Source of the DNA: Candidatus Magasanikbacteria bacterium RIFCSPHIGHO2_02_FULL_48_18
GTDB taxonomy: Bacteria > Patescibacteriota > Patescibacteriia > Magasanikbacterales > UBA922
Direction: 5' to 3'
Assembly (NCBI GenBank): GCA_001784285.1
Contig: MFQC01000011.1
Location: 3,640 to 67,639 of the forward strand
DNA: 64,000 bases
Position 1 is the first letter of the stretch, and the number at the start of each line of letters is the position of its first letter. Below are positions 3,784-21,729 of this stretch, piece by piece. The notes beneath the pieces were generated by a model that searched no databases, was not told where the DNA came from, and was given only the letters and a program-made list of their open reading frames with translations. Both the position numbers and the translations under genes were made by a program.

Positions 3784-3905
3784 GTGTAGCCTCCTCATTG
3801 CGAAGTCGGTGCGGGTATGCGCCGACGAAAGTGTTGGACCGTACAGGATCCGACCACCACCTCGACCATCGAGGTGAGGTAGTGAGGACCCGGACGGGCC
3901 GTTGT

Positions 3906-3975
3906 ATCTCCCGTTCCCCCTCCTCACCTCCCCCTTTGGGGGAGGGGAAGGGAGGGGGAACGGGAGATCTTTTTC
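3906..3975 (+). repeat. 63-nt GC-rich imperfect palindrome plus T-run (terminator-like) at the GC-content boundary
   Basis: atctcccgttccccctcctcacctccccc / gggggaggggaagggagggggaacgggagat arms around tttggg, then CTTTTT. GC composition switches immediately downstream. Confidence 0.5.
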
Positions 3976-4177
3976 TCTTGTTTTGGCCTTTATTTGTAAT
4001 GAACGGCTGAAAACACCAAAATTAGGCATGTTCAGCACAGAAAAAATCCTGGGAATCCCGGACCTTTTCTTTTCTGAACAGTGCAATAATACTTTAAATA
4101 ATCGCTCTATACAGCCAAATTTTTCTGCTTTTCTCCTTTTTTAGGAGAACTAACTATCATAGCACATTTTGGAGAAC

Positions 4178-4206
4178 TTGTCAAGACACCCCACCCATGA
4201 TATTCT
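4178..4206 (+). promoter_or_regulatory. Sigma70-like promoter TTGTCA-17-TATTCT for the toxin-antitoxin array
   Basis: Hexamers with 17-nt spacer, about 20 nt upstream of HEPN start 4226. Confidence 0.4.
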
Positions 4207-4225
4207 ACCCATATTCTACAATCGT

Positions 4226-4675
4226 ATGACTGATAAAGAAAAAATGAAATATGTCTTCTACTGGTTTGAAGAAGCCAAAATTTCTTTGGATGTCGCAAAA
4301 TCACTGTATAAAAGCAAAAAATACGCAGAAACACTCTTTTTTGGCCATTTAACCTTGGAAAAAATACTCAAAAGTATTGTCGTATTTCAAACAAATAAAC
4401 ACGCACCGTTTACCCACGACTTGGTATCTCTTGCAGAAAAAGGAAGAATGCCTCTTTTAACCGATGCAATTGAAACGTTACAAAAAGTAAATGGCTTTTA
4501 TCTTTCCGGCAGATATGATCAACACAAAATGGATTTTCGGAAAAAATGCACTCCCGAATTTACCAAAAAATACTTTGATGAAATAAAAAATACCTACATA
4601 TGGCTCGAAAAAGAAGCACAAACGCTCTTCCGGTCTTTGTCACCGCAAAAGCCCATGGATACATCCAAACACTAA
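4226..4675 (+). CDS. HEPN domain protein (toxin-like partner of MNT)
   Basis: MTDKEKMKYVFYWFEEAKISLDVAKSL...GRYDQHK motif. Classic HEPN N-terminus. Paired with downstream MNT. Confidence 0.7.
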   Translation: MTDKEKMKYVFYWFEEAKISLDVAKSLYKSKKYAETLFFGHLTLEKILKSIVVFQTNKHAPFTHDLVSLAEKGRMPLLTDAIETLQKVNGFYLSGRYDQHKMDFRKKCTPEFTKKYFDEIKNTYIWLEKEAQTLFRSLSPQKPMDTSKH

Positions 4676-4935
4676 AATCCTCTCGGATACCGATCAATCG
4701 CGCATACATATTCGGTTCGTGGGCAAAACAGAAGGCAGATGATGACAGTGACATTGATCTTGCTATTTTGTCGTCTTCTTTTTCGGATTGGGAAAAACAA
4801 AATAACGCGTTGGCAAAAGCCATGCGCATGGATTTTGCCGGCATTGAACCGCACGGATTTCACCCAAAGGATTTCACACCCGGTGAAAATCTGTTAGTGG
4901 ATGAAATTCTCAAATATGGAATACGGATTGTGTGA
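4600..4935 (+). CDS. Minimal nucleotidyltransferase (MNT, antitoxin-like); start uncertain, 76-nt overlap with HEPN if ATG at 4600
   Basis: IFGSWAKQKADDDSDIDLAIL = GS...DxD nucleotidyltransferase signature. Ends GIRIV*. Confidence 0.7.
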   Translation: MARKRSTNALPVFVTAKAHGYIQTLKSSRIPINRAYIFGSWAKQKADDDSDIDLAILSSSFSDWEKQNNALAKAMRMDFAGIEPHGFHPKDFTPGENLLVDEILKYGIRIV

Positions 4936-4938
4936 TAT

Positions 4939-5220
4939 ATGAAAAAAGAAAACATTATCAAACTTATTGCCCCCATTCTCACGCGCCATCATGTGACGAA
5001 TGCCGCGTTGTTTGGTTCGTTCGCGCGAGGAGAAGAAACGGAAACCAGCGATGTGGATATTCTTATTGACCCACCGCCACACATGTCACTTCTTGATATG
5101 GCACGTCTCAAACATGAACTTGAAGACACCCTTCACAAAAAAGTGGATCTTGTCCCGGAGAGATCACTCTACCCAGATCTCAAACCATACATTGAAAAAG
5201 ATAAACGTCCAATTTTTTAG
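4939..5220 (+). CDS. Minimal nucleotidyltransferase (MntA-like antitoxin)
   Basis: LFGSFARGEETETSDVDILID motif. Confidence 0.8.
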   Translation: MKKENIIKLIAPILTRHHVTNAALFGSFARGEETETSDVDILIDPPPHMSLLDMARLKHELEDTLHKKVDLVPERSLYPDLKPYIEKDKRPIF

Positions 5221-5223
5221 TCT

Positions 5224-5604
5224 ATGGCAACAGATGAACAGCGAGAACCATTGGCATATTTACATGACATACAGGAAAGTATTGAACACATAGAGGCATA
5301 CACACAACCACACACCTTTGAATCGTTTGTAAGAGACCAACAAATACAAGACGCTGTGGTTCGACGAATAGAAATAATCGGCGAGGCAGTAAAACAATTA
5401 CCGCTTGCCATCCGGCATACCTACCCCGAAATCCCATGGCGGGATGTGGCAGGTATGCGTGATATTTTAATTCACGAATATTATCGCGTTGATTTACCGA
5501 CTGCGTGGGAAGTGGCCATTCGTGATTTGCCAAAATTGAAACGGCAAATACAAAACCTCATTAGGCATATTACAATGAATGATAATAAAAATTCTAAGAA
5601 GTAG
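5224..5604 (+). CDS. HepT/DUF86-type HEPN toxin
   Basis: R-DILIHEY (Rx4HxY HEPN motif). 4-nt gap after the MNT gene. Confidence 0.8.
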   Translation: MATDEQREPLAYLHDIQESIEHIEAYTQPHTFESFVRDQQIQDAVVRRIEIIGEAVKQLPLAIRHTYPEIPWRDVAGMRDILIHEYYRVDLPTAWEVAIRDLPKLKRQIQNLIRHITMNDNKNSKK

Positions 5605-5606
5605 GT

Positions 5607-5639
5607 AAAATTCTCAAATACGAAATACGGATTGTGTAA
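5607..5639 (+). pseudogene. 33-nt remnant of an MNT gene 3' end (..KILKYEIRIV*) directly after the hepT stop
   Basis: Near-identical to 4900-4935 (3' end of MNT at 4600-4935). Confidence 0.5.
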
Positions 5640-5657
5640 CTCATTACCATAAAATAA

Positions 5658-6065
5658 ATGGCTAACGAACATATTATCCAATTTTGGAAAAAATCCGCGG
5701 ACAAAAATCACGCGGCCGCCAAGTCATTATTTCGCCTCGGGCATTATGATATGTGCCTCTTCTGTTGCCATCTTGCGATTGAAAAATATCTGAAGGCATA
5801 TTACATAGCACAAACTGGCAAGCTTCCCCCGTACATCCACGATCTCAACCGAATCGCCGAATCACTAAGTCTGCCGCTCACAGATGAACACATAACAGAC
5901 CTCGACACAATGACAAAATTTAACGTCCAAGGGAGATACGACGACGTAAAATTGCGCTTCTACAAAACCGCGACAAAACCATACACCAAACACTATCTTG
6001 AAAAAACCAACCAATTCATTCTATGGCTAAAAAAAGAATCTCAAAAAAAACAGAAAAAAAAATAG
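5658..6065 (+). CDS. HEPN domain protein
   Basis: HAAAKSLFRLGHYDMCLFCCHLAIEKYLKAY...QGRYDD, HEPN-like. Upstream of MNT. Confidence 0.7.
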   Translation: MANEHIIQFWKKSADKNHAAAKSLFRLGHYDMCLFCCHLAIEKYLKAYYIAQTGKLPPYIHDLNRIAESLSLPLTDEHITDLDTMTKFNVQGRYDDVKLRFYKTATKPYTKHYLEKTNQFILWLKKESQKKQKKK

Positions 6066-6349
6066 ATGGTTTTATATCCTCATTAAAAAAAGATGGGACG
6101 CCGATTACGAGTCTCTATCTTTTTGGCTCCCATGCCAAAGGAACCGCGCATGAATGGAGCGACATTGATTTGGCTGTTATTTCTCCGGCATTTGAAACAC
6201 GTATCAAAGATCCGCTGAATTATTTATGGGGGAAAAGGATGGAACTCAAAGAATTTGCCATCGAACCTGTTGGCTTTTCTCCAAAAGATTTTAAAGAAGG
6301 CGGCATGCTGATAAACGAAATTAAGCGGCATGGAATACGGATACTGTAA
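6023..6349 (+). CDS. Minimal nucleotidyltransferase
   Basis: LYLFGSHAKGTAHEWSDIDLAV motif. Ends GIRIL*. Confidence 0.8.
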   Translation: MAKKRISKKTEKKIDGFISSLKKDGTPITSLYLFGSHAKGTAHEWSDIDLAVISPAFETRIKDPLNYLWGKRMELKEFAIEPVGFSPKDFKEGGMLINEIKRHGIRIL

Positions 6350-6414
6350 AACCAAAGAGAAAATAAAAACAAACGCTTCATACATACCATTTTCTCACCC
6401 TAATATATACCTCT

Positions 6415-6636
6415 ATGAGCAACACTACCCCTACCAAACAAAAAAATCCTGACCTAACCAGAGAAATTCAGCTTATGAAAAGCCTGCTCATCAGTCTTGT
6501 CGGTCGAGACAACGAGGGAAACTACCAGCCTGAATTTGCCAAAAAAATACTTCTTGCTTCGGAAGAAAAGCCGACCAAAACATTTAAAGATCCCGCTTCA
6601 TTTTTGCGCGAACTTAAAAATGTTTCAATTTATTGA
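6415..6636 (+). CDS. Hypothetical small protein (73 aa) in cassette-like position
   Basis: ORF only. No SD. Followed by another MNT 3' remnant. Confidence 0.3.
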   Translation: MSNTTPTKQKNPDLTREIQLMKSLLISLVGRDNEGNYQPEFAKKILLASEEKPTKTFKDPASFLRELKNVSIY

Positions 6637-6703
6637 CAGCGAAATAATTCAGCTTCTTCGAGTCGCGCACAGAAAAGACATCTACCTATAATAGTCCCTT
6701 GCT

Positions 6704-6765
6704 TCTTTAAAGAAAACGGAGTACTGATCAATGAAACCAAGCGGCATGGAATACGGATACGGTAA
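6704..6765 (+). pseudogene. Truncated duplicate of an MNT gene 3' end (FKENGVLINETKRHGIRIR*)
   Basis: About 60 nt highly similar to 6290-6349 (3' end of MNT at 6023-6349). No upstream coding continuity. Confidence 0.55.
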
Positions 6766-6831
6766 ATTTGGTGAAAGATGCTGAAACAAGTTCAGCATGA
6801 CAACAAACGAGACTTGAGAGACTTCCAAAGG

Positions 6832-6866
6832 ACCAAAAACGACCGGCACTCACCGATCGTTTTTTA
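6832..6866. terminator. Bidirectional terminator between the TA array and the giant gene
   Basis: AAAACGACCGG-CACTCA-CCGATCGTTTTTT hairpin flanked by A- and T-runs. Giant gene stops at 6869. Confidence 0.45.
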
Positions 6867-6868
6867 AA

Positions 6869-9800
6869 TTACTCTCCAATCTTTGCCGCATCTCCTGCGG
6901 TTGCAGCACTCCCACTCGTCTCCTCCACTTTTACCCCATTTTTAAATTCAACCGGATTATTGGGATCGTCCAAATAGTACCGATTGATGGTATCCCCATC
7001 AACATCGTCTATTGCCGGCCGCAATTTGCCGCCTTCTTCAATAAGCTGAACTTTGCCTTCAATGGTTGCATTTCCTCCGGCAATATCAATTTTTAAATTT
7101 CCTCCCGCAATGTTTGGATTAAAATCCACTGGCATCACCACTTCGAATGGATCTTTCCCTTCCCCTCGAAAGAGAGAAAATCGTTTGATACCAGACACTC
7201 TTGTGGGAAGTTCGACTAACGGTTTGTCCGGTGTCGGTGCCCCTTCGGTTCCGGCAGCTGCTTCTGCCGCAGGAGATGGAATAGGTCCGCCGGATTCGCC
7301 CGCCGGTTCAACTCGAGGCTCTGCTGTTTCCTGGGGTCCAGCCGCAACTTTTGGTTTGGACAAATCCAATCCCGATCGATCTACTCCGGCGGCGCGAGTT
7401 TGGATATCCTCCCCACCTGATTGTGCGGCAGACCCCACGGCGCGTCCAATTGCGTCTCCACGGAACGAAGAAGCATCTGGTCTTGCGCCACTTGTTCGAG
7501 CGGCATCTTCTATCCGTTCCACTTCTGTTTTGACCGCATCAAAGTATGAACCCAGCACATCACGACGAAAGGTTCCCGCTATTTCATTATAACCGGAAAG
7601 ACGTGTCTTCAAAAACTGTTCTGTATATTGTTGCAAGGTTTGTCGTTGCGCCGGAGAAAACTCAAGTATATCTTCCAAATCAATATCGCCTCGAGCGGCC
7701 GCGTCAAGCGATGTCATAAGCAAGCTCACGCCTTTTTGCAATTTTTTGATTTCTGTAACTTCGGCTGCGGACGGCATTTCACTATAATCTCTTCCAATAC
7801 CGCCTTGATAGTCTCCGACACTTCCGCCGATACCTGCTGAACCATACGCTCGCGATTCAGCCGCAGAACCCACACCTCGAGCCACAGCAGAAGACGCTCC
7901 TCCAGTGATCGATTGAAATGGATTCTCGGCATAATGTGTTACCTGCCCGGCGGCATCGGTTACATTGAGCGTGCCATCTCGAAGTAATTCTACTACGCTG
8001 ACATTATTGCCAATTTCATACGTTATACCGTCGAGCGAAATCACTTTGACATTTTTGCCAAGGCCATCCGACGTTTCAATAATGCGTATTTTCCCCGGGC
8101 CGGAAAGCCCTGCTTTGGCTGCGTCCATTGACTGTGATACGTCGGGTCGTCCATGAAGTTCGGCCTTTGTCATAGGTCGTCCATAGCGTACTTCCAAATT
8201 TCTGTCTCCGCCAACTTGGTTGTGATGGAATGTGAGTCTACCTTTTTCATCAAGAGCCGGAAGATAGTGCTGATCGACACCATCTTTCCAATAAACGCCC
8301 TTTAAATAGCGTCCGTCCCGAGTCATAAATCCGGTACGCAATGAAACGCGGTGGGCTTCTCTGCCAATGTGCGTATCCAAATCCACTTTTGCAACATTGG
8401 GATCATACCCAATCATGCTATAAAATTTGGCCTTTTCTTCTCCGGTTAAGGTATCGTCCAAATATCGCATAATTGCAATATACCGGCCTTCCGGGCCGCC
8501 ACCTTTTGGCAACTGCCCATGGTCAAACATTTCTTGCAGAACCTCCGGCTTTTGCAAACTCGGCAATTCATGAGAAATACCTTGCAGGTCTTCTTTTACG
8601 CCACTTTCCAAATTCATGGCATCCCAATCGACCTCAGGCGCTTCCGGAGGAATATCCGCAAAATCTGCCGGCTGTATGTCGGCGGCCTGTTGCCAGCCGG
8701 CAAGACGCGCCAACTCTTGTCTGGTGATGTTAATTTCTTCTTGCAAACCCCCCACAGTCTGTTCGGCTTGAAGACTTTTTCCCATGAGCTCAGCGTGTGC
8801 CGGACTATCCGGAGACACTGCCGCCATTTGATTTTCAATTTCCACATGATGCACATGCGCGTCTGCCAATTGTTGTTCCAATGCCTCCACTTTTGTGGTG
8901 CCATCCATAATCTTTTGGATGTCTTCTGATTTTTTTGCCAAATCACTGGTTGATAATTGAAAGGCTTCGGTTGGGCGACCTTGCATCATGCTTTGCGCGT
9001 ATGCTTTTGCTTCCAAAAATTTTTGGACGTAGCTACCAACCGCAATACCGGCAACGACAGACCCCAGACGTTTTGCCCAACGAAATCCTTTTTCTTTACC
9101 AATTTTTCTTAACGAAATATCAAGAGAGGCATTTTCTTGTTCTATATAGGCCGAGGTATATTTGGCGACATCTAAAGCTGTCGCATCTGGTGATCCTCCC
9201 GCGGCCTCCGGGGTGCCGGACGTGCCGCCTGCCATGTTTTGTACTAAAACCTCCTGAAGAAGGACGTCCCGTTTTTCGTACAAATCCTGATAGACCTCGT
9301 CTTTATTTGGATCTTTATGATCCACCTGCAATTTTGCACGGCGGACACTTAATAAATCGTTCAATGTTTCAAGCCGCGTTGCGGGTGTGTCCCCAAGCTC
9401 ATCAATCATGATATCTTTCCCAGCAAAACCACGACGCAGTATTCCTCGAATTCCGCCTTTCTTTTCTAATTTCGCACACTTTTTCTGGTATTTCTTCGTC
9501 ATGTCGGCTTTTTCTTTACCATATTGAGCCGGTTCCCATTCTTGCGCGGTAGCGCGTGCATGAAGAACTGCCATATCCTGATTGAATTTTGCGTTCAACG
9601 CCGTGGCTCGATATTCTACGATGTCCTTTTCGTCGGTAAACACTCTCCCTTGTTTTCCAAAACGACGCTGGGAATACTCTTGTACTCCGTCCAAAAGACC
9701 TCGCGAACCAAAACCACCTCCAAGCCCGGCCATTGCTGTCCGGGTTGCAATAAATCCACCTGCCTGAAGAACCGATTCAAACCATAAAGGAGCTCCCACC

Positions 9801-12800
9801 AGAGCAGTAGATAATACGGTTCGGACACTGACAACTTTCCCGGCGCCTTTCATAAATCGGCTGGTTTGTTGCCACTGCTTATCCCAAAAGCCGCCCTTAT
9901 TTTTTTCGGTATAGGACTCAAAAAAATTGGACAAATTCATATCACCCAGTTTTCTCCAAGCTGATTGAACTTTGGCAAATGCTTTATTTTCCAATCGTTC
10001 CGAAATGGCCGTATCGAGCTGCCGTGATTCTTCTTTCATCCACGCTTGAATTTCTTGCACCTCAAACTCGGCTTTTTCAAGATAGGCTTTTCTGGCCGCG
10101 TCATAATCAACTTTTGCCTGCTCAAACGCAGGTTCCGCTTTCTTCCCACCAATGAGGCCACGACGTTTTTTGTATAAAAGTGCTAATGTTGCACGTGCGT
10201 CTTCCACATCTAATTCCAAACCGACAAGTTCTTTCTTCTCGTCGGACACTTCCCCCGCCTCCACCTCTCCGCTTGGCGGTTCCCTCTCGTCTTTCGCTGC
10301 CGGCGCGTATGCCTCGGCCGCGGCTTTTTGAAACGCATCGTTCACTTTTCTCTCTAGCTCAGAATCGTCCCACAGCTTTTGCGCCGCGACTGCCGGATCC
10401 GGATTTTGCTTCAATTCTACCGTAAGCCATTTGGGATTATCTTTCAACCAATCACCAATTTCTTTATAGAGTACATCCATGGCTATTGAACTTTTTAAAA
10501 TATTGGAAGCATAGCCCTCCCTGCCAACAAGGGAAGGAAACCCGTCTTGAACACGTTTCCGAAATTCATCAATAACCTGTTCCCAATACTCACGTACTTT
10601 TTCTCTGGATGCGGGGCGAAAACCCATTTTTTTGGATTGTCCAATGGCGGCCAACAACTCAACCTCTATTTCCCCGCCGGTATTAACCATACCATGGGCT
10701 ATGTCAATCATTTTTTTTCTCCCCGCCATTTCTTGCGTTGGCAAATGTGTACCAGATCTATCGGCGCGTGGAATACCTGCTGTTGCAACAGTTCGCTTAA
10801 ACAGAATATCTTCATAATAAGCAACGTCCCCTCGGGGAAACATGGCGCTTGGCCCTCCGGAAAACGAACGTTCTATAACGCCCCCCAAGGCTCCATGCAA
10901 TAAATCATCCACTTGTGTCCTTGCTTCGCGTTCAGAATAGCCAAGCGCAAGAAAATTGGCATACAACCGTTCTTTTGTCGCCTCCACTATTCTCTCTTTC
11001 CACTCGTCAAATGTTCGAACGTGCTCTTCATATGCTTGTATAGAGCCATCAATTTTTGCGGAAAGATCATCCGGAATAATTTTATCCTTATGAAGTTCGA
11101 CCATCACAAGTTTCGCGACCTCCTCGGCTGGCGTGTCAAGTTTACATCTGCCACCGTCTATTAATTTTTTGATTATGTTGTCAGTATTGTATGGATCAAC
11201 CTGTCTTACAACAGCTGTATGTAACTCATCTGAGATTGGCTCCGGTTCTATTGCTTTCCTTATTAAAAATAAAACCACATCTCTTGTTCCATAAATCAAA
11301 TCGGCAAGATCATATTGCTCTTTTATTTTTTTTACCCCCTCTTTGGCACGAGCTTCCGGTTTCATTTTTTTCAGCTCTTTTTCCTCCATCTTTGGATTCA
11401 CGGAATAAAAAATTAACTCAAGGGCGTGTAGGCGGCGATCATTGTTATCTATTTGGCCCACAGCTTCTTTTTCCACTGCTTCTTTAAACGCTGTCCAGTA
11501 TGCTTGCAATTCTGCATTATCAACATCAACGTCTTTCATTTTCTTCTGCCACGCATCTTCCGCGTCTCTCGCCGGATCACGCTCACCAATTTCTTGTGCA
11601 AAACCAAGATCACGCATAATGCCTTTTGCGGCTTCTTTGGGATTATTTCTTACGTCTTCATGAAGAAATCCCAGGTTCTCTGATAAATTTTCAAGCGCAG
11701 GCTGGACACGGTCTTGGACAAATTGGTCAATGTCATCTTCCTTTACATGCCCGCCATCTTTGAGAAGCTGATGTATATGGTCGCGGACATCCTCTTGCAC
11801 CAACTGATCCCACACATGCCTTGAAAACTTCCCAAATTCTTCATCCTCTTTTTCCATTGTCTTTATGGTCTCATAAAAATCAAAATTTTTTGGATCTATT
11901 TTTCTATCAGTCCACAGCCGATCAAACGCCGCATCAAATGCGCCGCCATCGTCAAAACGGGAATCTATACCATGAATTTCCGGATATGTTTCTTCAAGAA
12001 AAGCCCGAAAACGTTGTTTATATTCTTTCTTATACGCTTCGGGGTCTTTTTTCTCTTCCACAATCACCGGCTCGGAATTTTCATCTGCGCGCGCCAACAA
12101 CAATTCCGCCAGCTGTTCCGGAGTGGCTTTTTTGGGGGCATGACGCAAGACATCTTCCACATCTAAATAATGAAAGATGCGATAAAAAAGTTTTTCCCGT
12201 TTCAGAGGGTCGCTCTCCAATCTTGATATCACCCCCAGTGCGGCATGCCAACCCATCTGTGCGGCATGGCGTAATACCGCGAGATCACGTTTTCCTTTAT
12301 TAAAAATCCCAGATAGTTTACTGACCTCCACTGCTCCTATCTTGTCTATACGATCTAAAAATTTAGCTGTTGCTTCACGATTTGCGTCATGCAACGCGCC
12401 ATACGTCATCGATCCGGCTTCCGCGGCAACCGGAGTTGGCTCAACATCAACTGGCCGTTTATCAAGACCTCCGCCTCTTGTTGCACTAAGGGCATCTGAA
12501 ACTTCCAACAAATCTGGTTCGGATTCGACAGGTCGTGCTGGTGGTTGGTCTGGTTCAACGGCAGCCGGAGCCGATTCTGTGCCGCCAGGAACTTCATCAT
12601 CAGCTACTTCTGCTTCCGGTGGTTCATCGTCAGCAAACTCCGCCGTCACCGGTTCTTCGTCATCTACCAACTCGGATTCTGCAATTGGTCCTGTATCGAA
12701 ATATCGCCCAGCTTTTTTATGAGCACCCAAAAATTGTGCCACTCGTTTTGTGGCTTCCAATTCTGGATTCCCTAAAACCAATTCCTCTCCACGTTGATCT

Positions 12801-14665
12801 GATTCCAACTGAGCCCTCAACGCCCTCAAAATATCCAAGGCCTCGGACGAAAGTGGAATAGATTTATCGTCAGGAGTAAGTATTTTAACTGCCGCTTCAA
12901 CTACTTGATCAACGTATTCCTGTGTTTTTTGTTCTTGCCATTTTTCTGTTTCTGTTCTTTCTGTAGGGACAACAGCCGGTACTGCCGACGGTGCTCCTTT
13001 CTCTGTATCTTTAATGTCAGGTATAAGTAGTGGTCCAGATGGTTCATCGTCCAATGAAGAAAGCGTAGGCCCAGGTTCGAAAGGAACTCGTGGTTCTGGT
13101 CCTGATGCCGGCGCCTCCCCCGGTTCATCCTTATGCACTTTTTTCCGAGAAATACCTTTCCCTAACGAACCACCCAATGTTGTTTCTCCCAAAATACCAA
13201 GCCCGCGCGGTCTTTCTGGTAAAGATTCAGCGGCCGGCGTTTCTACGGGTGGTACAGAAGTTTCTTTTTTTACATCGTCTGTGGCAAGAACAGCGCCAGA
13301 CTGTTCACTTTCTCCTGGCACCGACGGCGGCGTGAGCTGTTCCAACCCTTCAACATGATCAGCCGATCCATCGTCTTCTACAATCGTCGCTTCTGCAATC
13401 TTTTCTTCTGCTTCTTCCGGCTGCAATGCAGTGGCTCTCTTTTCTTCCTCCGCCGCAAGCTCACTAAGAAAATCGGGTTTATTTTCTTCATCCGCACCAA
13501 AAGGCAAAGGATGAGTTTCCGGCGCAACGCTTCGCTTGGTCACTTTGGACCATGAAGGAGAGTCGGCTCTTGCGATATGAATTTCCTGCGGATAGGTTGT
13601 CCCATCTTTTCGTGGCAAGTGAACCCGAAATGTTATCGCTCCATCCGCGCGTTTTCCCACAACTTCGCCGGGAACGAGTTTTTTTGGATACTGATATTGA
13701 ATTTGTTCGCCCACCGTAAAGGTGTGCGTACCGAGGGAAACCGTTTCCCCCTCTTTGGCAGTCGCGATTACTCCTGTTTCCGGAGAAGTCGCCGCTTTCT
13801 CTTTTCCTGTTTCACCACGAAATAATGTTCTTCTTAATTGTTCTCTTTTTGGCACTGCCCAATCCGGCATATGCGCCATTGCTTGAACTCCGGGCGGCCC
13901 AAGACGTTTCCCTTCTGAAATAATTCTTCCCCTTTCGTCATCCGTAAGGTCGGCCTCGTCTTTCGCAAGAAGATCGGCAATGGAGGATTCTGGTGACACG
14001 GGAGCTTCTTCTGCTAAAGGAACAACGGACTGAGAAATTGTGCCTTCTTCAGGCACAACCGTATCTTCATGCGTAATGCCTAATTCGTCCTGAACGACGT
14101 CAAGAATATTATTCACGGTGTCAGAAACGTCCCCTGTTTGGAGAAGAACTTCCTCATCTAAGACGCGCATACGAGAAACAAATGCCCTTTGTATGCTCGA
14201 ACGTTGCGCGGCAGGGTAACCATTGAGACAATCGTCCAATCCCCCTAATACGTCTACCCAAAAATCTGCCACTCTCCCACGGACATCACGGTCGGTGACA
14301 CCATTTTTATCAAAAACGGTTTCCAAAAACTGCAAAAATTCCATGGTGTTGTTTCGGCGCAATTCGTGTTCTAGTCTGGCGCGGAACTCTTCATAATCAG
14401 TCTCAAGCGACTCCAATTCTATTGCAATCTGCTCTGCTTCTCCGTCTTTCAATTTTGTTCCGGCATTATCCAAAAAAGACCGAAGCCTCTTATCGAGCCC
14501 CGCCAATTCATTTCCAAAATCCTCACTTCCCTCTTCCAATGTCTTGAGGTGGTCAAATAACGTTGCCATTTCAGCCCGCATGCGATCGGCTCTTTTCACG
14601 ATATTTTCGGCTTCGGGCGTTTGCGATCCTTCTTTTTTTGGTTTTGTTTTGTCTTCTTCAGCCAT
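6869..14665 (-). CDS. Giant protein (2598 aa), function unknown. Acidic coiled-coil N-terminal half, two internal hydrophobic segments, Gly-rich C-terminal region. Weak YD-repeat-like motifs (TRDGRYL, DEKGRLTF)
   Basis: Single uninterrupted ORF. ATG at 14665 is 3 nt after the upstream ORF stop (coupled). Opposite strand carries only short ORFs. Confidence 0.85.
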   Translation of the reverse strand: MAEEDKTKPKKEGSQTPEAENIVKRADRMRAEMATLFDHLKTLEEGSEDFGNELAGLDKRLRSFLDNAGTKLKDGEAEQIAIELESLETDYEEFRARLEHELRRNNTMEFLQFLETVFDKNGVTDRDVRGRVADFWVDVLGGLDDCLNGYPAAQRSSIQRAFVSRMRVLDEEVLLQTGDVSDTVNNILDVVQDELGITHEDTVVPEEGTISQSVVPLAEEAPVSPESSIADLLAKDEADLTDDERGRIISEGKRLGPPGVQAMAHMPDWAVPKREQLRRTLFRGETGKEKAATSPETGVIATAKEGETVSLGTHTFTVGEQIQYQYPKKLVPGEVVGKRADGAITFRVHLPRKDGTTYPQEIHIARADSPSWSKVTKRSVAPETHPLPFGADEENKPDFLSELAAEEEKRATALQPEEAEEKIAEATIVEDDGSADHVEGLEQLTPPSVPGESEQSGAVLATDDVKKETSVPPVETPAAESLPERPRGLGILGETTLGGSLGKGISRKKVHKDEPGEAPASGPEPRVPFEPGPTLSSLDDEPSGPLLIPDIKDTEKGAPSAVPAVVPTERTETEKWQEQKTQEYVDQVVEAAVKILTPDDKSIPLSSEALDILRALRAQLESDQRGEELVLGNPELEATKRVAQFLGAHKKAGRYFDTGPIAESELVDDEEPVTAEFADDEPPEAEVADDEVPGGTESAPAAVEPDQPPARPVESEPDLLEVSDALSATRGGGLDKRPVDVEPTPVAAEAGSMTYGALHDANREATAKFLDRIDKIGAVEVSKLSGIFNKGKRDLAVLRHAAQMGWHAALGVISRLESDPLKREKLFYRIFHYLDVEDVLRHAPKKATPEQLAELLLARADENSEPVIVEEKKDPEAYKKEYKQRFRAFLEETYPEIHGIDSRFDDGGAFDAAFDRLWTDRKIDPKNFDFYETIKTMEKEDEEFGKFSRHVWDQLVQEDVRDHIHQLLKDGGHVKEDDIDQFVQDRVQPALENLSENLGFLHEDVRNNPKEAAKGIMRDLGFAQEIGERDPARDAEDAWQKKMKDVDVDNAELQAYWTAFKEAVEKEAVGQIDNNDRRLHALELIFYSVNPKMEEKELKKMKPEARAKEGVKKIKEQYDLADLIYGTRDVVLFLIRKAIEPEPISDELHTAVVRQVDPYNTDNIIKKLIDGGRCKLDTPAEEVAKLVMVELHKDKIIPDDLSAKIDGSIQAYEEHVRTFDEWKERIVEATKERLYANFLALGYSEREARTQVDDLLHGALGGVIERSFSGGPSAMFPRGDVAYYEDILFKRTVATAGIPRADRSGTHLPTQEMAGRKKMIDIAHGMVNTGGEIEVELLAAIGQSKKMGFRPASREKVREYWEQVIDEFRKRVQDGFPSLVGREGYASNILKSSIAMDVLYKEIGDWLKDNPKWLTVELKQNPDPAVAAQKLWDDSELERKVNDAFQKAAAEAYAPAAKDEREPPSGEVEAGEVSDEKKELVGLELDVEDARATLALLYKKRRGLIGGKKAEPAFEQAKVDYDAARKAYLEKAEFEVQEIQAWMKEESRQLDTAISERLENKAFAKVQSAWRKLGDMNLSNFFESYTEKNKGGFWDKQWQQTSRFMKGAGKVVSVRTVLSTALVGAPLWFESVLQAGGFIATRTAMAGLGGGFGSRGLLDGVQEYSQRRFGKQGRVFTDEKDIVEYRATALNAKFNQDMAVLHARATAQEWEPAQYGKEKADMTKKYQKKCAKLEKKGGIRGILRRGFAGKDIMIDELGDTPATRLETLNDLLSVRRAKLQVDHKDPNKDEVYQDLYEKRDVLLQEVLVQNMAGGTSGTPEAAGGSPDATALDVAKYTSAYIEQENASLDISLRKIGKEKGFRWAKRLGSVVAGIAVGSYVQKFLEAKAYAQSMMQGRPTEAFQLSTSDLAKKSEDIQKIMDGTTKVEALEQQLADAHVHHVEIENQMAAVSPDSPAHAELMGKSLQAEQTVGGLQEEINITRQELARLAGWQQAADIQPADFADIPPEAPEVDWDAMNLESGVKEDLQGISHELPSLQKPEVLQEMFDHGQLPKGGGPEGRYIAIMRYLDDTLTGEEKAKFYSMIGYDPNVAKVDLDTHIGREAHRVSLRTGFMTRDGRYLKGVYWKDGVDQHYLPALDEKGRLTFHHNQVGGDRNLEVRYGRPMTKAELHGRPDVSQSMDAAKAGLSGPGKIRIIETSDGLGKNVKVISLDGITYEIGNNVSVVELLRDGTLNVTDAAGQVTHYAENPFQSITGGASSAVARGVGSAAESRAYGSAGIGGSVGDYQGGIGRDYSEMPSAAEVTEIKKLQKGVSLLMTSLDAAARGDIDLEDILEFSPAQRQTLQQYTEQFLKTRLSGYNEIAGTFRRDVLGSYFDAVKTEVERIEDAARTSGARPDASSFRGDAIGRAVGSAAQSGGEDIQTRAAGVDRSGLDLSKPKVAAGPQETAEPRVEPAGESGGPIPSPAAEAAAGTEGAPTPDKPLVELPTRVSGIKRFSLFRGEGKDPFEVVMPVDFNPNIAGGNLKIDIAGGNATIEGKVQLIEEGGKLRPAIDDVDGDTINRYYLDDPNNPVEFKNGVKVEETSGSAATAGDAAKIGE

Positions 14666-14667
14666 AG

Positions 14668-14883
14668 TTATTTCAATTGCAAAATATGTTGAAGCGCTTC
14701 TTTTACTCTCACTTTATCCTCAAGTTCGAGCACTCGCCGGTGCATCACCGCGTGGCGTTTTTTCAAATCATCAAATTCTTTCCGCAGCTCCTCATAATGA
14801 CTTTTTATCTCTTCGTATTCCGGCGCGGCAGACAATGCCGGCTTTGGTTGCTGCGTTAATTGTGCGCCAAGCGTATCTGCCAT
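14668..14883 (-). CDS. Small coiled-coil protein immediately upstream of the giant gene
   Basis: MADTLGAQL...heptad-rich. Stop 3 nt before the giant gene start. Confidence 0.45.
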   Translation of the reverse strand: MADTLGAQLTQQPKPALSAAPEYEEIKSHYEELRKEFDDLKKRHAVMHRRVLELEDKVRVKEALQHILQLK

Positions 14884-14902
14884 AAAAAACAAAGACTATT
14901 CT

Positions 14903-15235
14903 TTACTGTGAATTTCCTTTTTTATTTTGGATAAAATTCATGAGGCCGGTCTTTACGGCAACGACTTCTTCCTGCAAGATATCCAAAAAATTCGGCACAT
15001 CGTGCCGGATAAATACCTGAAGATCTTCGTCCGTTCCGGTTTCCAATATTTTTTTCAATTCCTCTTGTTTTTCAGAAGATACCAAATCAAACACGCGGAC
15101 CAATAATTTTTTTTGGATAAGCTCGGTCATTTGGTCCAAAAGCTGCGCTTTTTGACTGTCGGGTAAATAATCCAAATTGAGAAGCTGAATAATATGATCA
15201 TGAATGAAATTGGATTGTACCGTGGGTGATGGCAT
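14903..15235 (-). CDS. Hypothetical 110-aa protein
   Basis: ORF in same operon orientation. No recognizable motif. Confidence 0.45.
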   Translation of the reverse strand: MPSPTVQSNFIHDHIIQLLNLDYLPDSQKAQLLDQMTELIQKKLLVRVFDLVSSEKQEELKKILETGTDEDLQVFIRHDVPNFLDILQEEVVAVKTGLMNFIQNKKGNSQ

Positions 15236-15276
15236 AAAGAAAAATTCTAAATATCTAAATGATTACCATGGAAGTG

Positions 15277-15885
15277 TTATTCTCTCCTCTCCCGTTTCAA
15301 CACCACCAGCGCCGCGCCAACCAATCCAACAAAAAATCCAAGCGCCATATTCACGGGTATATTTGGTCTCACCGGCCAACGCGTCGCCACCGGATCATTG
15401 ACCACTTTGAGAACGACATCCTTTCCAATATATTCCCACCCTCTTGTTACCAGCGCGTCGACCGAAGCACGCGCGAGCGCAATGGCTTGGGATTGGCTTC
15501 GTCCGTACAAACTCACATTGAGGATGCCGGTGCCAAACGAAACCGACGAAGAAATGGTTTCTCGCCATCGTTTTCGTTTCACGCGTTCCGACACGTTGGC
15601 AAAATGGCTTTTGTCAATGCCATAGTCGCCCTGAGTCATCACTTTTTGAAAAAAATCATTGGAGGGCAATACTTCGGCAACATTGGATCCAATACGTTCG
15701 GCAGATTTTGCAATGGTGTACGGATCAACTCCTGCCTGACTATTGGGAAGAATAAGAATCTGCGCGTCCGCTCGGTAATAGCGAGGAAAGAAAAAACTCA
15801 CCCCGCCTGCAAGAAGCCCGATGATGACGCCGCCAATGAGGATGAGCCGACTCCGTTTTTTGATAATAGACCAGGGGTAATTCAT
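15277..15885 (-). CDS. Wzz/chain-length-determinant-like protein (two TM helices flanking a periplasmic domain)
   Basis: N-terminal TM (LILIGGVIIGLLAGGVSFF), C-terminal TM (ALGFFVGLVGAALVVL), KRxRRE tail. Typical Wzz/YveK topology. Confidence 0.6.
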   Translation of the reverse strand: MNYPWSIIKKRSRLILIGGVIIGLLAGGVSFFFPRYYRADAQILILPNSQAGVDPYTIAKSAERIGSNVAEVLPSNDFFQKVMTQGDYGIDKSHFANVSERVKRKRWRETISSSVSFGTGILNVSLYGRSQSQAIALARASVDALVTRGWEYIGKDVVLKVVNDPVATRWPVRPNIPVNMALGFFVGLVGAALVVLKRERRE

Positions 15886-15992
15886 ATATGCGTATGTACC
15901 AAATTATAACAGAAGAATCAAAAAATTGCGATATGCGCTCTCTTTTCAATCCGGAAAGAAACAACAAATTATAGCACAAAAATGCCCTGCCG

Positions 15993-17072
15993 TCAAGGTT
16001 CAACCAGTACTTTTGACACCATCACATCAATCTCTTCTTTGCCCCGCAAAATAGTGAGCGTCATAGTTTTGGGAGCGCGCAAGACCTGGTAATGGAGCAA
16101 GAGCGGATCAATTGGCTTTCCTTCGATGCCGATAATCAAATCATTTTTTTGAATTGGCGACGATTTTGGCAACACACCGCCGGTGACCAAAAACCCAAAC
16201 AGCCGATCTTTCGCGTCCTCCGCTGAAAACCCTTCCACCAGCAAACCCGCGTATGGAAGCGCTTCATACAAAAACGTGCCGGTTGTAAGAACCGATTGAA
16301 TCTCGCCAGGAATAAATGTCGCCGGGATAATATGGCCGTCACTCCCGACAAATCCGGCGAATTCGCCAGACAAGGTAAAGAGGATCTGTCCTTCCGAGGC
16401 AGTGGACGAAACGACAAATTCATAATGCGGCTTCCACACGAGAAAACCGGATGGAGATTCAAGCGACACGCGGCTCGACACATCGACGAGCGTCCATTCC
16501 TGTTTTGCAACCGCCCAAAAGATACTCCCCGCGTGCATATTGTCCACATCCGAAAAAGACACCGGCACAAATTGATTGCCGGAAAAACGAAGAAATACCA
16601 GCCCAAAAATATTTTCTTTTTTTACCTCTTCGACAGAAAACGTATTCCCTCGAAAATCAACACCCTCCCAAGAGAGTTCATCGCCGGCCTTGTAGGCCGG
16701 AAGCGCCGCAACGGCCCATCCGTTGTCGGTCAAAAGGACCGCGTCGGCAATCCGCCCATCGGTTTTATACCATGCGGACCCGATTTTCTTTCTCGTATCA
16801 AAAAGACCAATCATCTGTTGCTTCATTTCGTTTTCCAAAAGGGGGTTGGGCATTTCGACCGTTGCGTCTCCGATGGTCCGGCTGACAGGAGTGAACCGGG
16901 ACGCCGGCCCGGCTGGCGGGCTGATCCATGTGATGCTGGCGAGGCCCCCAGAAATACCGGCGAGAAAAGAGAGAAACGCGACAAACAAAAGCAGGGGCAA
17001 CCGTTGCAAACGCTTATGAGTCTGTATATTGCATGTTTTGGGAGGGAGATGAGGAATCTGGGACATATTCAT
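15993..17072 (-). CDS. Membrane-anchored protein with C-terminal PDZ-like domain (HtrA-like architecture, catalytic Ser motif not evident)
   Basis: N-terminal TM. C-terminal LIIGIEGKPI...LTILRGKEEIDV is PDZ-like. Confidence 0.5.
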   Translation of the reverse strand: MNMSQIPHLPPKTCNIQTHKRLQRLPLLLFVAFLSFLAGISGGLASITWISPPAGPASRFTPVSRTIGDATVEMPNPLLENEMKQQMIGLFDTRKKIGSAWYKTDGRIADAVLLTDNGWAVAALPAYKAGDELSWEGVDFRGNTFSVEEVKKENIFGLVFLRFSGNQFVPVSFSDVDNMHAGSIFWAVAKQEWTLVDVSSRVSLESPSGFLVWKPHYEFVVSSTASEGQILFTLSGEFAGFVGSDGHIIPATFIPGEIQSVLTTGTFLYEALPYAGLLVEGFSAEDAKDRLFGFLVTGGVLPKSSPIQKNDLIIGIEGKPIDPLLLHYQVLRAPKTMTLTILRGKEEIDVMVSKVLVEP

Positions 17073-17076
17073 GTTA

Positions 17077-17847
17077 TTATATCCATCGCACAAAAAACAT
17101 ACCGGCGGCAAACAACAACACATTCACAATCAAAAACCACCGCTGTTTGTGCCACACGACGCCCTGATAGTGAATATGGAATCGAATAAACAATTGAACA
17201 ATATACCATATCCACGTGGTAAACAACCCCAAGGCAAGATAGCCGAGCGGAAATATCTGTATGGCGAATGTTATCTCGGTCATAAGCACTGCCACGAATC
17301 CAATCCAAAATAAAAATGTTCGAATGGTTCCCTCAACATACAATCGCCAAATCATCGAGCCGATCACGGCCAAAATAATCCCGTTCAAAAAACTCAATGC
17401 CCAAAACGGAAACGACTGAAAAAAAAGATGAAAGGCAAATACCGTCGTCGTCAAGGCATACGCGTCAAACACCCACACCATCATGCCAATGCGGCGAATC
17501 GATTTTTGCACCGGCACCGGGGCGATACGATGATACAAGAGCAAGACAAACAAAAGACCAATGCATACGCCGCTTAAGACAATAAGAAAATATCGGAGCC
17601 ACAACGCTTCAACCAAGCTCGTAAATCCCAAAAAACCAAAAACCGTCGCGAGAATCAAAAAAAATTGGCGGCGATCCGCATCAATTCTTTTTTCAATAAC
17701 ATGATAGATGCTAAACAATATGCCCACCCACGCAACAAGAACAATCGCAAGCGCTAAGAGATTTGCAAAATGATGAATAAGAAACAGGCAGAGACTGCTC
17801 ACGACTCCGGCAACGGCTCCTATGCCAAACATGACAACACGAATCAT
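17077..17847 (-). CDS. Polytopic membrane protein, unknown function
   Basis: Six or more hydrophobic helices. Confidence 0.5.
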   Translation of the reverse strand: MIRVVMFGIGAVAGVVSSLCLFLIHHFANLLALAIVLVAWVGILFSIYHVIEKRIDADRRQFFLILATVFGFLGFTSLVEALWLRYFLIVLSGVCIGLLFVLLLYHRIAPVPVQKSIRRIGMMVWVFDAYALTTTVFAFHLFFQSFPFWALSFLNGIILAVIGSMIWRLYVEGTIRTFLFWIGFVAVLMTEITFAIQIFPLGYLALGLFTTWIWYIVQLFIRFHIHYQGVVWHKQRWFLIVNVLLFAAGMFFVRWI

Positions 17848-18296
17848 AGGCTGTTGAGAGCGGAAGACAACTCGCGAAGGACGGCCACTGCCTCGGCTTG
17901 GACGGCCGCCATATCGCGCTGATCAGGGTTGGCGCGCAACGCTTGAATTTTTATAAATGTTTCGAGATGCGCGTCCATCATTTCTTTGGGGACAGAAACG
18001 GACAAAAACAAACGATCCGCTTCTTGAAAAAATATCTCCGGGTCAATCGTTTCCGCTTGCGCGATAAAATCCGTCATGCTTGCGCGATACGACGCGGTCA
18101 AGACATCAGGCGTTTTCCCCGCCTCATACGCTTGTTCCACTGCGGATTGAATATCGGCATACGCGCGCTCTCCCACATCCACAATATGCAATCGATTCGC
18201 GACAAATAAAAAAATACTCAAAAAGACAATGAGTCCGCTCGCCGATAAAAGCACAAAAAGTGCCACATCAAGAGGATGTTTTTTTCGCCAGAACAT
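17844..18296 (-). CDS. Membrane-anchored hypothetical protein
   Basis: N-terminal TM then soluble domain. 4-nt overlap with upstream gene. Confidence 0.45.
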   Translation of the reverse strand: MFWRKKHPLDVALFVLLSASGLIVFLSIFLFVANRLHIVDVGERAYADIQSAVEQAYEAGKTPDVLTASYRASMTDFIAQAETIDPEIFFQEADRLFLSVSVPKEMMDAHLETFIKIQALRANPDQRDMAAVQAEAVAVLRELSSALNSL

Positions 18297-19323
18297 CTTG
18301 TAAGACAATGCTTAATGCGGTCGCGACCGGAATCGCAACCAGCACCCCAAGAACGCCAGCCAGACGCGCGCCGATCAAAATGGCAATGATACTGATAATC
18401 GGATTCAAACCGACGGCCTTTTGCATGACCTTGGGAATAAGTAAATGATTTTCGAATTGCTGAATGACAATATACACGACAAGAACGCCGAACATAGTCA
18501 CCGGTCCGCCCTGAGAAAACGCGAGAAACAACGACGGCACGGAGGCAAACACAGGCCCCACATACGGAATAAATTCAAGGAGCGCGGCCAAAAGCGCCAA
18601 AACCAGAGCGTATTTTATTCCCAAAATACTCAACCCGAAAAAGACCAATAATCCAATAATACCGCTCAAAATCAACTGCGCGCGCAACCAATACCCCAAT
18701 TTATCGCTAATTTTTTGAAAAAGAGACAAGACATGAGAAATATATTCGTCCGGAACGACAGAATTGAGTATTTTTTTGAGCGGATCATCCTGAACGACGA
18801 GGTAAAATGTCATAACCAAAATCAATACCAGCGAAAACAGCCCGCCAAAAAAACCGGAAATGGTAGAAAACACGCCAGAAATGGCCGTGTCCACACCGCC
18901 CGACGCGCCAACCGCCTGCCGCCCGGAACCTTCGCTCAGAGAAAAAAACTGTTGCATCTCTTGGACGCCGGCCACAATGCGTTGCCATGTTTCATTTTCT
19001 TGCATCCCTTGCCAGAGGTTGTCAAAATTTTGAACCAGTTGCGGAAGGTCATGCGTTATAACCGGAGCGAGCAAAAGAAGCGCGAGGCCGACAATGCCAA
19101 AGAGAATAATGTAAATGAGAAGGACGGACAAAAACCGAGGAATTTTTCGCTGGTGAAGCCAGCTCGCAAATGGATGGATCAAGGCGGACAAAATCAATGC
19201 GACAAAAAGCAAAAAAAGAATATTCCACACCAAAAAAAGAACATAGACAAATAATCCGAATCCCAAAATTTTAAAAAGGGTTTTCGTGCTTATGTGGACT
19301 TTGACTTCTTGGGACATACGCAA
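18268..19323 (-). CDS. AI-2E family transporter (PerM/YdiK-like)
   Basis: Eight predicted TM segments with the typical AI-2E pattern ...LLEFIPYVGP... Confidence 0.7.
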   Translation of the reverse strand: MRMSQEVKVHISTKTLFKILGFGLFVYVLFLVWNILFLLFVALILSALIHPFASWLHQRKIPRFLSVLLIYIILFGIVGLALLLLAPVITHDLPQLVQNFDNLWQGMQENETWQRIVAGVQEMQQFFSLSEGSGRQAVGASGGVDTAISGVFSTISGFFGGLFSLVLILVMTFYLVVQDDPLKKILNSVVPDEYISHVLSLFQKISDKLGYWLRAQLILSGIIGLLVFFGLSILGIKYALVLALLAALLEFIPYVGPVFASVPSLFLAFSQGGPVTMFGVLVVYIVIQQFENHLLIPKVMQKAVGLNPIISIIAILIGARLAGVLGVLVAIPVATALSIVLQDVLAKKTSS

Positions 19324-19360
19324 ATTGCGTATAGTATACCTTTTTTATTTCGAAAATGCA

Positions 19361-19391: not shown

Positions 19392-19393
19392 TG

Positions 19394-19789: not shown

Positions 19790-19790
19790 A

Positions 19791-21723: not shown

Positions 21724-21729
21724 AACCTC

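Follow-up and report, generated by a model that had tools for sequence, protein, structure and literature searches.

Among the described systems that this locus most resembles, MapZ/LocZ and RodZ are bitopic envelope scaffolds in which one transmembrane helix connects a domain in the cytoplasm to an extracytoplasmic domain facing the wall, and MapZ is a substrate of StkP/PhpP. LXG polymorphic toxins, with their Lap1/Lap2 (DUF3130/DUF3958) partners, belong to type VIIb secretion in the Firmicutes, and phage tape-measure genes encode very long, mostly helical products and have chaperone open reading frames (ORFs) upstream. CPR (candidate phyla radiation) bacteria, or Patescibacteria, represent a large share of bacterial diversity and have tiny genomes in which lineage-specific genes are mostly unannotated. 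Here we describe a gene for a protein of 2598 amino acids (aa), referred to below as the giant protein, together with two small genes directly upstream of it, in a 64,000-nucleotide (nt) stretch of DNA (the window) from Candidatus Magasanikbacteria bacterium RIFCSPHIGHO2_02_FULL_48_18 (contig MFQC01000011.1). The giant protein belongs to a hitherto undescribed family of large, predicted bitopic membrane proteins, of which it is the longest known and the named members of which are all from Patescibacteria, and its gene and the two small genes form what the sequence comparisons well support as a functional three-gene module. The features of the giant gene and its two partners are as follows.

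6869..14665, minus strand: giant gene, 7797 nt, ATG start, 2598 aa, zero internal stops
14668..14883, minus strand: 71-aa coiled-coil ORF, the second conserved partner, ATG at 14883 (the mechanically called ORF begins with TTG at 14892), stop at 14668..14670
14903..15235, minus strand: 110-aa DUF5663-type ORF for a small helical protein without a hydrophobic segment, the first conserved partner gene
10469..14665, minus strand: N-terminal ~1400 aa of the giant protein, from composition, charge and a coiled-coil heuristic
8966..10288, minus strand: module A, aa ~1460-1900, from exhaustive phmmer and alignment A1
9707..9835, minus strand: Gly-rich hydrophobic hairpin H1/H2, aa 1611-1653, VVSVRTVLSTALVGAPLWFESVLQAGGFIATRTAMAGLGGGFG, from Kyte-Doolittle values and conserved columns
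9011..9079, minus strand: predicted transmembrane helix H3, aa 1863-1885, KRLGSVVAGIAVGSYVQKFLEAK, from a conserved hydrophobic run
8141..8656, minus strand: module B, a small alpha/beta domain at aa ~2004-2175, directly past the transmembrane helix, from alignment A6
6872..8140, minus strand: C-terminal tail, aa ~2176-2598, from sequence and composition

A first-pass annotation of this DNA had reported a 2598-aa ORF, and its coordinates and the lack of any internal stop were confirmed. An open frame of 2598 codons in DNA with 45% guanine plus cytosine (GC) cannot arise by chance. The sole close match of the giant protein in a word-indexed database search is its own GenBank entry, a 2312-aa 'hypothetical protein' from Candidatus Magasanikbacteria bacterium RIFCSPLOWO2_12_FULL (contig MFQO01000045.1). 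This contig of ~22 kb equals window positions 2630..24591 save for three substitutions and one base missing at window position 7799, and this 1-nt deletion splits the giant gene into annotated products of 2312 and 302 aa. The discrepancy, which falls in a Gly-rich stretch of the protein (aa ~2255-2295), would fit an ORF fused by assembly error or a gene that is truly frameshifted, a possibility that the first-pass annotation had itself raised. However, six other assemblies, which stem from different runs and pipelines, contain the whole 7797-nt ORF at 100% identity (two are from ENA, one of these from groundwater, two from Logan, one is a JGI metagenome and one a second NCBI genome), and in the relative P0003 the elements of the tail follow in the same order, by eye, across the discrepancy site. 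Because six other assemblies have the identical uninterrupted ORF, the giant gene is intact and is not a pseudogene, the frameshifted GenBank record is the outlier, and an artefact or pseudogene deserves hardly any credence. Two further contigs of the same strain stop inside the giant gene. The same-strain assemblies are all identical, with no polymorphism among them.

Relatives were identified by an exhaustive phmmer (HMMER) search of 1.84 billion cluster representatives with aa 1400-2598 as the query, which returned 14 distant relatives of 688-2136 aa with E values from 7e-46 to 4e-4. Those that are named are from Patescibacteria or Candidatus Kuenenbacteria, and every one is annotated as 'hypothetical'. 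Module A, which was matched by 11 relatives in this search, runs from a juxtamembrane coiled coil through the motif W-R-K-L-G-x-M-N-L (W-R-K-L-G-D-M-N-L in the window protein), a hydrophobic hairpin, the motif R-R-F-G-x-R-G and a helical loop of ~200 aa to a transmembrane helix; the loop holds an invariant Tyr, and the second hydrophobic helix is preceded by R-W-x-K-R. In alignment A1, aa 1460-1900 align with 12 relatives, and G135, R176, R203, G210 and Y353 (numbering of the alignment) are invariant, with R176, R203 and G210 belonging to the hydrophobic hairpin. The motifs that define the family, W-[RK]-[RK]-[LM]-G-x-x-[NS]-[LIVFA] and the S-[VAL]-R...G hairpin, are found in the giant protein, which also qualifies by the further marks of module A, namely G-x-G-x-x-[FTM]-G-[ST]-[RY] and a transmembrane helix usually opened by K-R. 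A search of GTDB genomes with profile A4 returned only locus L014, which was already known, whereas a search of JGI metagenomes with profile A5 added one lineage, L018/L017.

Module B matches the relatives P0003, P0004 and P0014 at 36-40% identity, and it also aligns (alignment A6, with the same key positions) with a 'KGDGLERVLQRQL...WAGH..A...KYFVY..Q..VL' domain in seven more relatives and in locus L018. Module B thus occurs in most of the family examined. When modelled with AlphaFold2 (AF2), module B (aa 2041-2150) was predicted to comprise three to four helices and, after these, a beta-hairpin; the predicted local distance difference test (pLDDT) score is 75-94 for the first 70 residues and 58-80 for the 40 that come next, whereas the tail (aa ~2176-2598) stays below 50. 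A Foldseek search with the C-terminal model gave nothing below E = 0.1 in the PDB and a best match of E = 5e-3 in BFVD, with TM-scores of at most 0.13; across these searches and that of the PDB with the module A model, E never fell to 0.001 or less and no TM-score was as high as 0.2. Profile searches of the PDB with module A (A1), module B (A6) and DUF5663 (A9) likewise returned nothing meaningful, and A6 nothing below E = 1. Module B had looked by eye like PG_binding_1, and this assignment was dropped for want of any Pfam match, PDB profile match or Foldseek match.

The N-terminal ~1400 aa are shared with no relative that was found: in a full-length phmmer comparison with the 14 relatives, no match begins before aa ~1354, and the sequence comparison indicates that the exceptional size of the giant protein stems from this region. 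In two relatives, P0013 (L023 4605..7688) and P0016, the long acidic region is replaced by a PP2C-type phosphatase domain located N-terminal to module A. As had been annotated, the giant protein has no signal peptide, and its N-terminus, MAEEDKTKPKKEGSQ, is hydrophilic. The description of its N-terminal half as acidic and coiled-coil was borne out for the acidity, the net charge being -3 to -17 per 100 aa, but only in places for the coiled coil, as the heuristic selects only aa ~18-115 and 569-596. The segment aa ~200-780 is mostly an acidic low-complexity sequence rich in Pro, Glu and Asp, with a small beta-rich stretch at aa ~300-375 read by eye, and aa ~780-1440, in which aromatic residues are many, is probably helical and appears globular by eye. 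The two internal hydrophobic segments that had been noted correspond to aa 1611-1653, which is Gly-rich and holds the sole 19-aa window with a Kyte-Doolittle mean above 1.4, and to aa 1863-1885. The Gly-rich C-terminal region likewise stands, at aa 2200-2300 and 2400-2598, and the order of the tail by eye is a beta-rich part, the Gly-rich stretch at aa ~2255-2295, a helical part, an Ala/Gly/Pro-rich linker and a terminal beta-rich part. The faint YD-repeat-like motifs found no support, with no RHS/YD match in Pfam or NCBIfam at E <= 0.1 and no internal repeats by self-BLASTP. The giant protein has zero matches in Pfam, NCBIfam and PHROGs, a PDB sequence search gave nothing meaningful, and a PADLOC scan returned a chance-level Cas5f match alone (E = 0.029).

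The two small genes were then compared across loci by reading the DNA around eleven diverged lineages: nine with module A and readable upstream DNA (the window, L012, L014, L018, L020, L022, L023, L024 and L025), plus L015 and L019. In all nine module-A lineages a DUF5663-type ORF of 99-111 aa is followed by a coiled-coil ORF of 61-73 aa and then by the large gene, with intergenic gaps of 1-19 nt and one exception of 98 nt. The synteny that the first-pass annotation had proposed to check is thus present in nine of nine lineages for both small ORFs. In L015 and L019, module B is the one part in common with the giant protein; there a diverged DUF5663-like ORF abuts the large gene and the coiled-coil mini-ORF is absent. 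The DUF5663-type proteins are 51% (L012, 34.3 bits) and 38% identical to the window copy in two pairs, and the window protein is 36-44% identical to five other homologues that pass the threshold of PF18908. The cutoff of this family, 23.7 bits, is passed by seven of the ten positional homologues, whereas the window ORF scores 23.4 bits (E = 9e-5), 0.3 bit under the gathering threshold; a precomputed annotation of the identical protein gives PF18908 with no 'weak' mark. A word-indexed search with the 110-aa ORF returned itself alone, and the identical protein led to 24 contigs of the same strain. No mention of DUF5663 was found in the literature searched. The 71-aa ORF is homologous to a 67-aa ORF of L012 (39% identity, E = 3e-10, the closest pair), its Pfam matches are generic leucine-zipper or coiled-coil families only, and the coiled-coil mini-ORFs have the common pattern L...E...L...R...L..K...I. 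Because the gene order is kept and the small proteins are homologous across loci, these comparisons make a functional module of the DUF5663 gene, the coiled-coil ORF and the large gene well supported.

In the window these three genes are preceded on the same strand by a Wzz-like gene, as had been annotated, and the trio is bracketed by a promoter-like site and a terminator-like hairpin.

15277..15885, minus strand: 202-aa Wzz-like ORF, PCP-2b/CpsC-like, with hydrophobic segments at its N- and C-terminal ends
15968..15996, minus strand: promoter-like site, a candidate for the operon, TTGACG-17 nt-TATAAT with a TG extension, by consensus match
6835..6864, minus strand: intrinsic-terminator-like hairpin, an A-tract, a 13-bp stem and a U-tract, by RNA folding

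The gaps between the four minus-strand genes, in the order Wzz-like, 110-aa, 71-aa and giant, are 41, 19 and 2 nt. The promoter-like site lies 83 nt upstream of the Wzz-like start and, with 11 of 12 consensus positions, is the best in the region 6000..20000, where the total number of such sites is no higher than the shuffled expectation. The hairpin begins 5 nt past the giant stop codon (-17 kcal/mol, z = -4.6, none of 200 shuffles as good) and could serve both directions between convergent genes. With the best promoter-like site ahead of the Wzz-like gene and a strong terminator hairpin behind the giant gene, the locus has putative signals of an operon. The junction between the 71-aa ORF and the giant gene is TAA-ct-ATG, with a 2-nt spacer, and the giant start lies 3 nt past the last base of the stop, exactly as had been noted. 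A Shine-Dalgarno-like motif within 18 nt is missing at ~23 of 26 inspected gene starts in the window, despite the CCUCC in the 3' end of the window 16S rRNA (...GGAUCACCUCCUUUCU). Because hardly any window gene has such a motif, the giant gene follows a genome-wide trait in having no ribosome-binding site ahead of it. Coupling by reinitiation would agree with the 2-nt spacer, and in a genome so poor in Shine-Dalgarno motifs it makes translational coupling of the two genes plausible. In addition, a TATAAT-like box lies only 5-22 nt upstream of several starts, and this proximity suggests leaderless or very short-leader mRNAs; the minus-strand starts at 17072, 15885 and 19317 are examples of this window-wide pattern.

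The 202-aa ORF matches Pfam Wzz (PF02706) over residues 6-84 with 29.7 bits against a cutoff of 25.5, and below the respective cutoffs it has a partial GNVR match (22.7 bits versus 27.7) and a match to TIGR01006 (32 bits versus 296, E = 8e-8). With its Wzz domain, the partial GNVR match, two terminal hydrophobic segments (N-terminal LILIGGVIIGLLAGGVSFFF and C-terminal MALGFFVGLVGAALVVL) and a length of ~200 aa, this gene, and only this gene, resembles the PCP-2b (CpsC/Wzd-type) co-polymerases, from whose setting it differs in that no tyrosine kinase or polymerase gene adjoins it. No Wzy-type polymerase, flippase or BY-kinase gene adjoins it either; elsewhere in the window, the scan covered ORFs of at least 250 aa. 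A Wzz gene holds the same position in L015 and L019, the L019 copy being 44% identical to that of the window (E = 4e-57), and both loci keep the window order rplT-infC-smpB ... Wzz-like / small ORF / large gene. Since it adjoins the module in only three of 11 lineages, the Wzz-like gene is a lineage-specific neighbour. Its adjacency to the small ORFs is real here, and its place in the linked cluster that had been proposed does not extend to the core module, from which it was rejected on the same count. Outside the three Wzz lineages, the trio follows a UvrC or CHASE2-cyclase gene and precedes Beta_propel or rplY genes.

The linkage of two small ORFs to a giant gene had been taken in the first-pass annotation as a chaperone/adaptor-plus-effector module, in which the giant protein would be exported or delivered on contact while the small helical proteins bind its N-terminal region and target or stabilize it. 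The locus shares with the LXG/Lap systems a large protein that has a helical N-terminal region and is otherwise variable, and whose gene comes directly downstream of genes, always in one order, for two small all-helical proteins. The conserved order of the two small helical ORFs directly upstream, the hydrophilic coiled-coil region with which the large proteins open and the fast divergence outside modules A and B, which is often seen in surface or conflict proteins, would all suit an effector; the large proteins of the window and L019 align over ~100 aa only, against the 44% identity of their Wzz neighbours. However, the searches made revealed neither an LXG nor a toxin domain, and neither an immunity gene nor an ATPase of the EssC type; the conserved core is here a hairpin, a transmembrane helix and a juxtamembrane domain, and the small-protein families are unrelated to Lap1/Lap2. 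No toxin, RHS/YD or LXG domain was detected with Pfam and NCBIfam in the 2598 aa, and the giant protein was rejected as an LXG toxin or type VII substrate. No dedicated secretion ATPase, of the EssC/FtsK type or other, is present among the scanned window ORFs of at least 250 aa, where only SecY was seen, and neither an EssC/FtsK-type ATPase nor an immunity gene occurs among the genes of the ~22-kb source contig and ten related loci. No conserved immunity-like gene lies downstream, as the HEPN/MNT pairs found there are on the opposite strand and are not in other lineages. The core of the family is a membrane anchor with a juxtamembrane domain rather than an N-terminal targeting, delivery or toxin domain, a PP2C phosphatase stands in some members where the targeting domain would be expected, and there is a single copy per locus examined, flanked by housekeeping genes. 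The conserved small-ORF linkage of the original proposal therefore holds, whereas its effector half finds no support, with no toxin domain detected, no secretion ATPase among the ORFs scanned and a membrane-anchor core, and delivery as an effector is regarded as improbable.

The arrangement of charges around the hydrophobic segments instead points to a protein that spans the membrane. In members with both flanks readable, the 15 aa before H3 hold three to six Lys/Arg residues and the 15 aa after it hold none or one, and the hairpin columns form a hydrophobic run conserved across the family with Lys/Arg on both flanks. By the positive-inside rule, this asymmetry suggests an N-in/C-out topology in which the N-side of H3 is cytoplasmic and its C-side is outside; the suggestion is made because the charge pattern of H3, the hydrophilic N-termini and the PP2C fusions agree. 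The giant protein would thereby share with MapZ and RodZ an N-in/C-out orientation, a long cytoplasmic region that is disordered in part, and, just outside the membrane, a conserved domain of compact form, and with MapZ also the link to a PP2C-type phosphatase, which is here fused in two relatives. It differs from both in that no sequence or fold similarity was detected, in that it is 5-8 times larger, and in its extra hairpin and two small partner genes.

A bitopic protein of this kind could also be a trans-membrane signalling receptor, in which module B senses a cue from the wall or surface, the cytoplasmic N-terminal part provides the output and the small proteins regulate it. The PP2C fusions in P0013 and P0016 fit such a role, and the layout, with a variable cytoplasmic part joined through one transmembrane helix to a conserved extracytoplasmic domain, resembles that of bitopic sensors. 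A gene with CHASE2 and guanylate/adenylate cyclase domains is located directly upstream of the DUF5663 gene in L020 (5667..7427) and L025 (2405..4166), which hints at a signalling context for the trio in these two lineages. However, the 500-1600 cytoplasmic residues of the window protein and of most relatives contain no recognizable enzymatic or output domain, and a very long acidic, disordered, coiled-coil region suits a scaffold better. We consider a receptor to be about as improbable as an effector.

Taken in sequence, the proposed organization would be as follows. The DUF5663-type 110-aa protein and the 71-aa coiled-coil protein would be produced from the same transcript as the large protein, probably by coupled translation, and both, having no hydrophobic segment, are presumably cytoplasmic. 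The long acidic N-terminal region of the large protein (~1600 aa, partly coiled-coil and variable between lineages) would remain in the cytoplasm, the Gly-rich helical hairpin at aa 1611-1653 would enter the membrane from the inside as a re-entrant element, the helical loop of ~200 aa would come back to the cytoplasm, and the single transmembrane helix at aa 1863-1885 would then take the last ~700 aa outside, where module B and the variable Gly- and beta-rich tail would face the cell envelope. As adaptor or assembly subunits, the two small proteins may bind a coiled-coil part of the large protein in the cytoplasm; a role as subunits or assembly factors is the simplest reading of their strict co-linearity. 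The trio would thus act as a trans-membrane scaffold or transducer that connects a lineage-specific cytoplasmic platform, which carries PP2C in some relatives, to the cell wall or surface. We give about an even chance to this reading of the trio, as an envelope scaffold or transducer that is anchored in the membrane, oriented N-in/C-out and accompanied by two small partners in the cytoplasm.

Several observations weigh against this scaffold or transducer. The hydrophobic segments are Gly-rich and moderately hydrophobic, the top 19-aa Kyte-Doolittle mean being 1.49, and the positive-inside rule is the single basis both for telling the hairpin from the transmembrane helix and for the N-in/C-out orientation. 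The AF2 model of module A (13 sequences) is all-helical and of low confidence (pLDDT 59), and that of the C-terminal 558 aa (11 sequences) is poor (pLDDT 49) and confident over module B only. Module B shows no recognizable wall-binding fold, although, as confidence in the 558-residue model is confined to this module, a weak relationship may have escaped the fold search. The N-terminal 1400 aa were covered by the word-indexed search and the family libraries, and the exhaustive search covered aa 1400-2598. The binding of the small proteins to the large one is suggested by co-linearity, and homology links none of the three to a function.

A remnant of a mobile element was also considered, in which the giant protein would be a tape-measure-like phage protein or a conjugation protein with two small chaperone ORFs before it. 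The giant protein shares with tape-measure products its great length, its mostly helical character and its internal Gly-rich hydrophobic segments, and two small ORFs precede its gene, which makes for a superficial architectural likeness; the 71-aa ORF also weakly matches phrog_17025 (E = 1.3e-4), a family without assigned function, and toxin-antitoxin pairs and an abrupt GC shift lie close by. However, the giant gene has no PHROG match, no tblastn match to the giant protein turned up in a set of 50,697 phage genomes or in one of 72,556 plasmids, and IMG/VR yielded no relative of either module A or DUF5663. The scanned window ORFs included no further genes of phage or conjugation type, and the module is found in conserved housekeeping synteny across divergent genomes, in a chromosomal position beside smpB, infC, rplT or rplY. 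With no similarity to any tape-measure family and with cellular neighbours rather than tail genes, a phage tape-measure protein was rejected, and a mobile-element origin of any kind is very remote.

The wider neighbourhood is that of a core chromosome, since the window holds SecY, ribosomal proteins, EF-Tu, 16S rRNA, tmRNA/smpB, infC-rpmI-rplT, RecO, alanine racemase and TrmD. Nearer to the trio are an AI-2E transporter, a protein whose counterpart in L015 has a faint PDZ match and unannotated ORFs with hydrophobic stretches (by eye); the AI-2E transporter and the faint PDZ match are recorded in L015 and not in L019. In three other lineages, a gene of 687-697 aa comes after the large gene. In L014 and L025 it is annotated as Beta_propel (PF09826), lies 3-20 nt downstream and is followed by rplY (L25), whereas in L018 it lies ~950 nt downstream, is assigned to Beta_propel by size and position only, and has a 232-aa ORF, similar in size to rplY, at the position of that gene. 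The genes at this position, downstream of the large gene, are the following.

L014 9503..11593: Beta_propel gene
L018 13455..15548: gene of similar size at the Beta_propel position
L025 8799..10862: Beta_propel gene

From this placement, Beta_propel is a possible fourth partner that is missing at the window locus. In L025, which lies on a 771-kb contig, the large gene (4730..8778), which comes past a 68-aa gene and the DUF5663 gene, is broken into ORFs of 207, 70 and 925 aa, and either assembly frameshift errors or a degraded copy is the likely cause.

Within the window, three consecutive HEPN / nucleotidyltransferase (MNT-HepT type) toxin-antitoxin-like pairs occupy 4169..6349 on the plus strand and run towards the giant gene's 3' end; the homologous loci of other lineages lack these pairs. 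Positions 1..~3950 have a GC content of 59-67%, which drops within ~100 nt (boundary ~3900-4000) to the 30-45% found elsewhere. Neither of the high-GC ORFs 2275..4086 (minus strand, 603 aa) and 1184..2350 (minus strand, 388 aa) has a Pfam match, and for the 603-aa ORF PHROGs and tblastn against phages were negative too. The junction is present in GenBank contig MFQO01000045.1 as well, and the segment would be either a foreign island or the result of a chimeric join. The 16S rRNA match at 44348..46150 (minus strand) spans 1803 nt against a model of 1533 nt, and because the match exceeds the length of the model the gene has ~270 nt of insertion sequence; insertions in rRNA genes are often reported in CPR bacteria. 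A 725-aa ORF at 22203..24380 (plus strand), beside tRNA-Asp, has no Pfam match and is called in all same-strain assemblies that reach it.

Giant genes have been described on a far larger scale in Omnitrophota and other bacteria, in work whose abstract compares the proteins with titin of ~40,000 aa, implicates them in cell-wall degradation and refers to CPR bacteria only in passing (bioRxiv 10.1101/2023.11.21.568195). The present case is similar in that the ORF is unusually long for bacteria and its bearer is ultra-small and probably host-associated, whereas the 2598-aa protein has no recognizable domains and belongs to a separate, smaller family.

In conclusion, this study reports an undescribed protein family and a three-gene module that, judged by the sequence searches, are so far found only in Patescibacteria and for which no relationship to a described family or system was detected. 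An isolated giant hypothetical protein thereby becomes a member of a defined family with two modules, diagnostic motifs and a predicted topology, and the Pfam family DUF5663 receives its first genomic context. Because the giant gene occupies 7.8 kb of a small genome, is intact and identical across samples and has partner genes that are kept across deep divergence, it is very likely important for the cell. We propose tentatively, as a reading that is possible but rather unlikely, that the trio forms a CPR-specific trans-envelope apparatus with a membrane platform, a fast-evolving cytoplasmic arm (~1600 aa here) and a surface-exposed C-terminal arm, which would couple the interior of the episymbiont to its wall or host interface. 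If so, the apparatus may serve, for example, in the organization of attachment sites, the marking of the division site or contact signalling, and it would do so with folds that have no described relatives.

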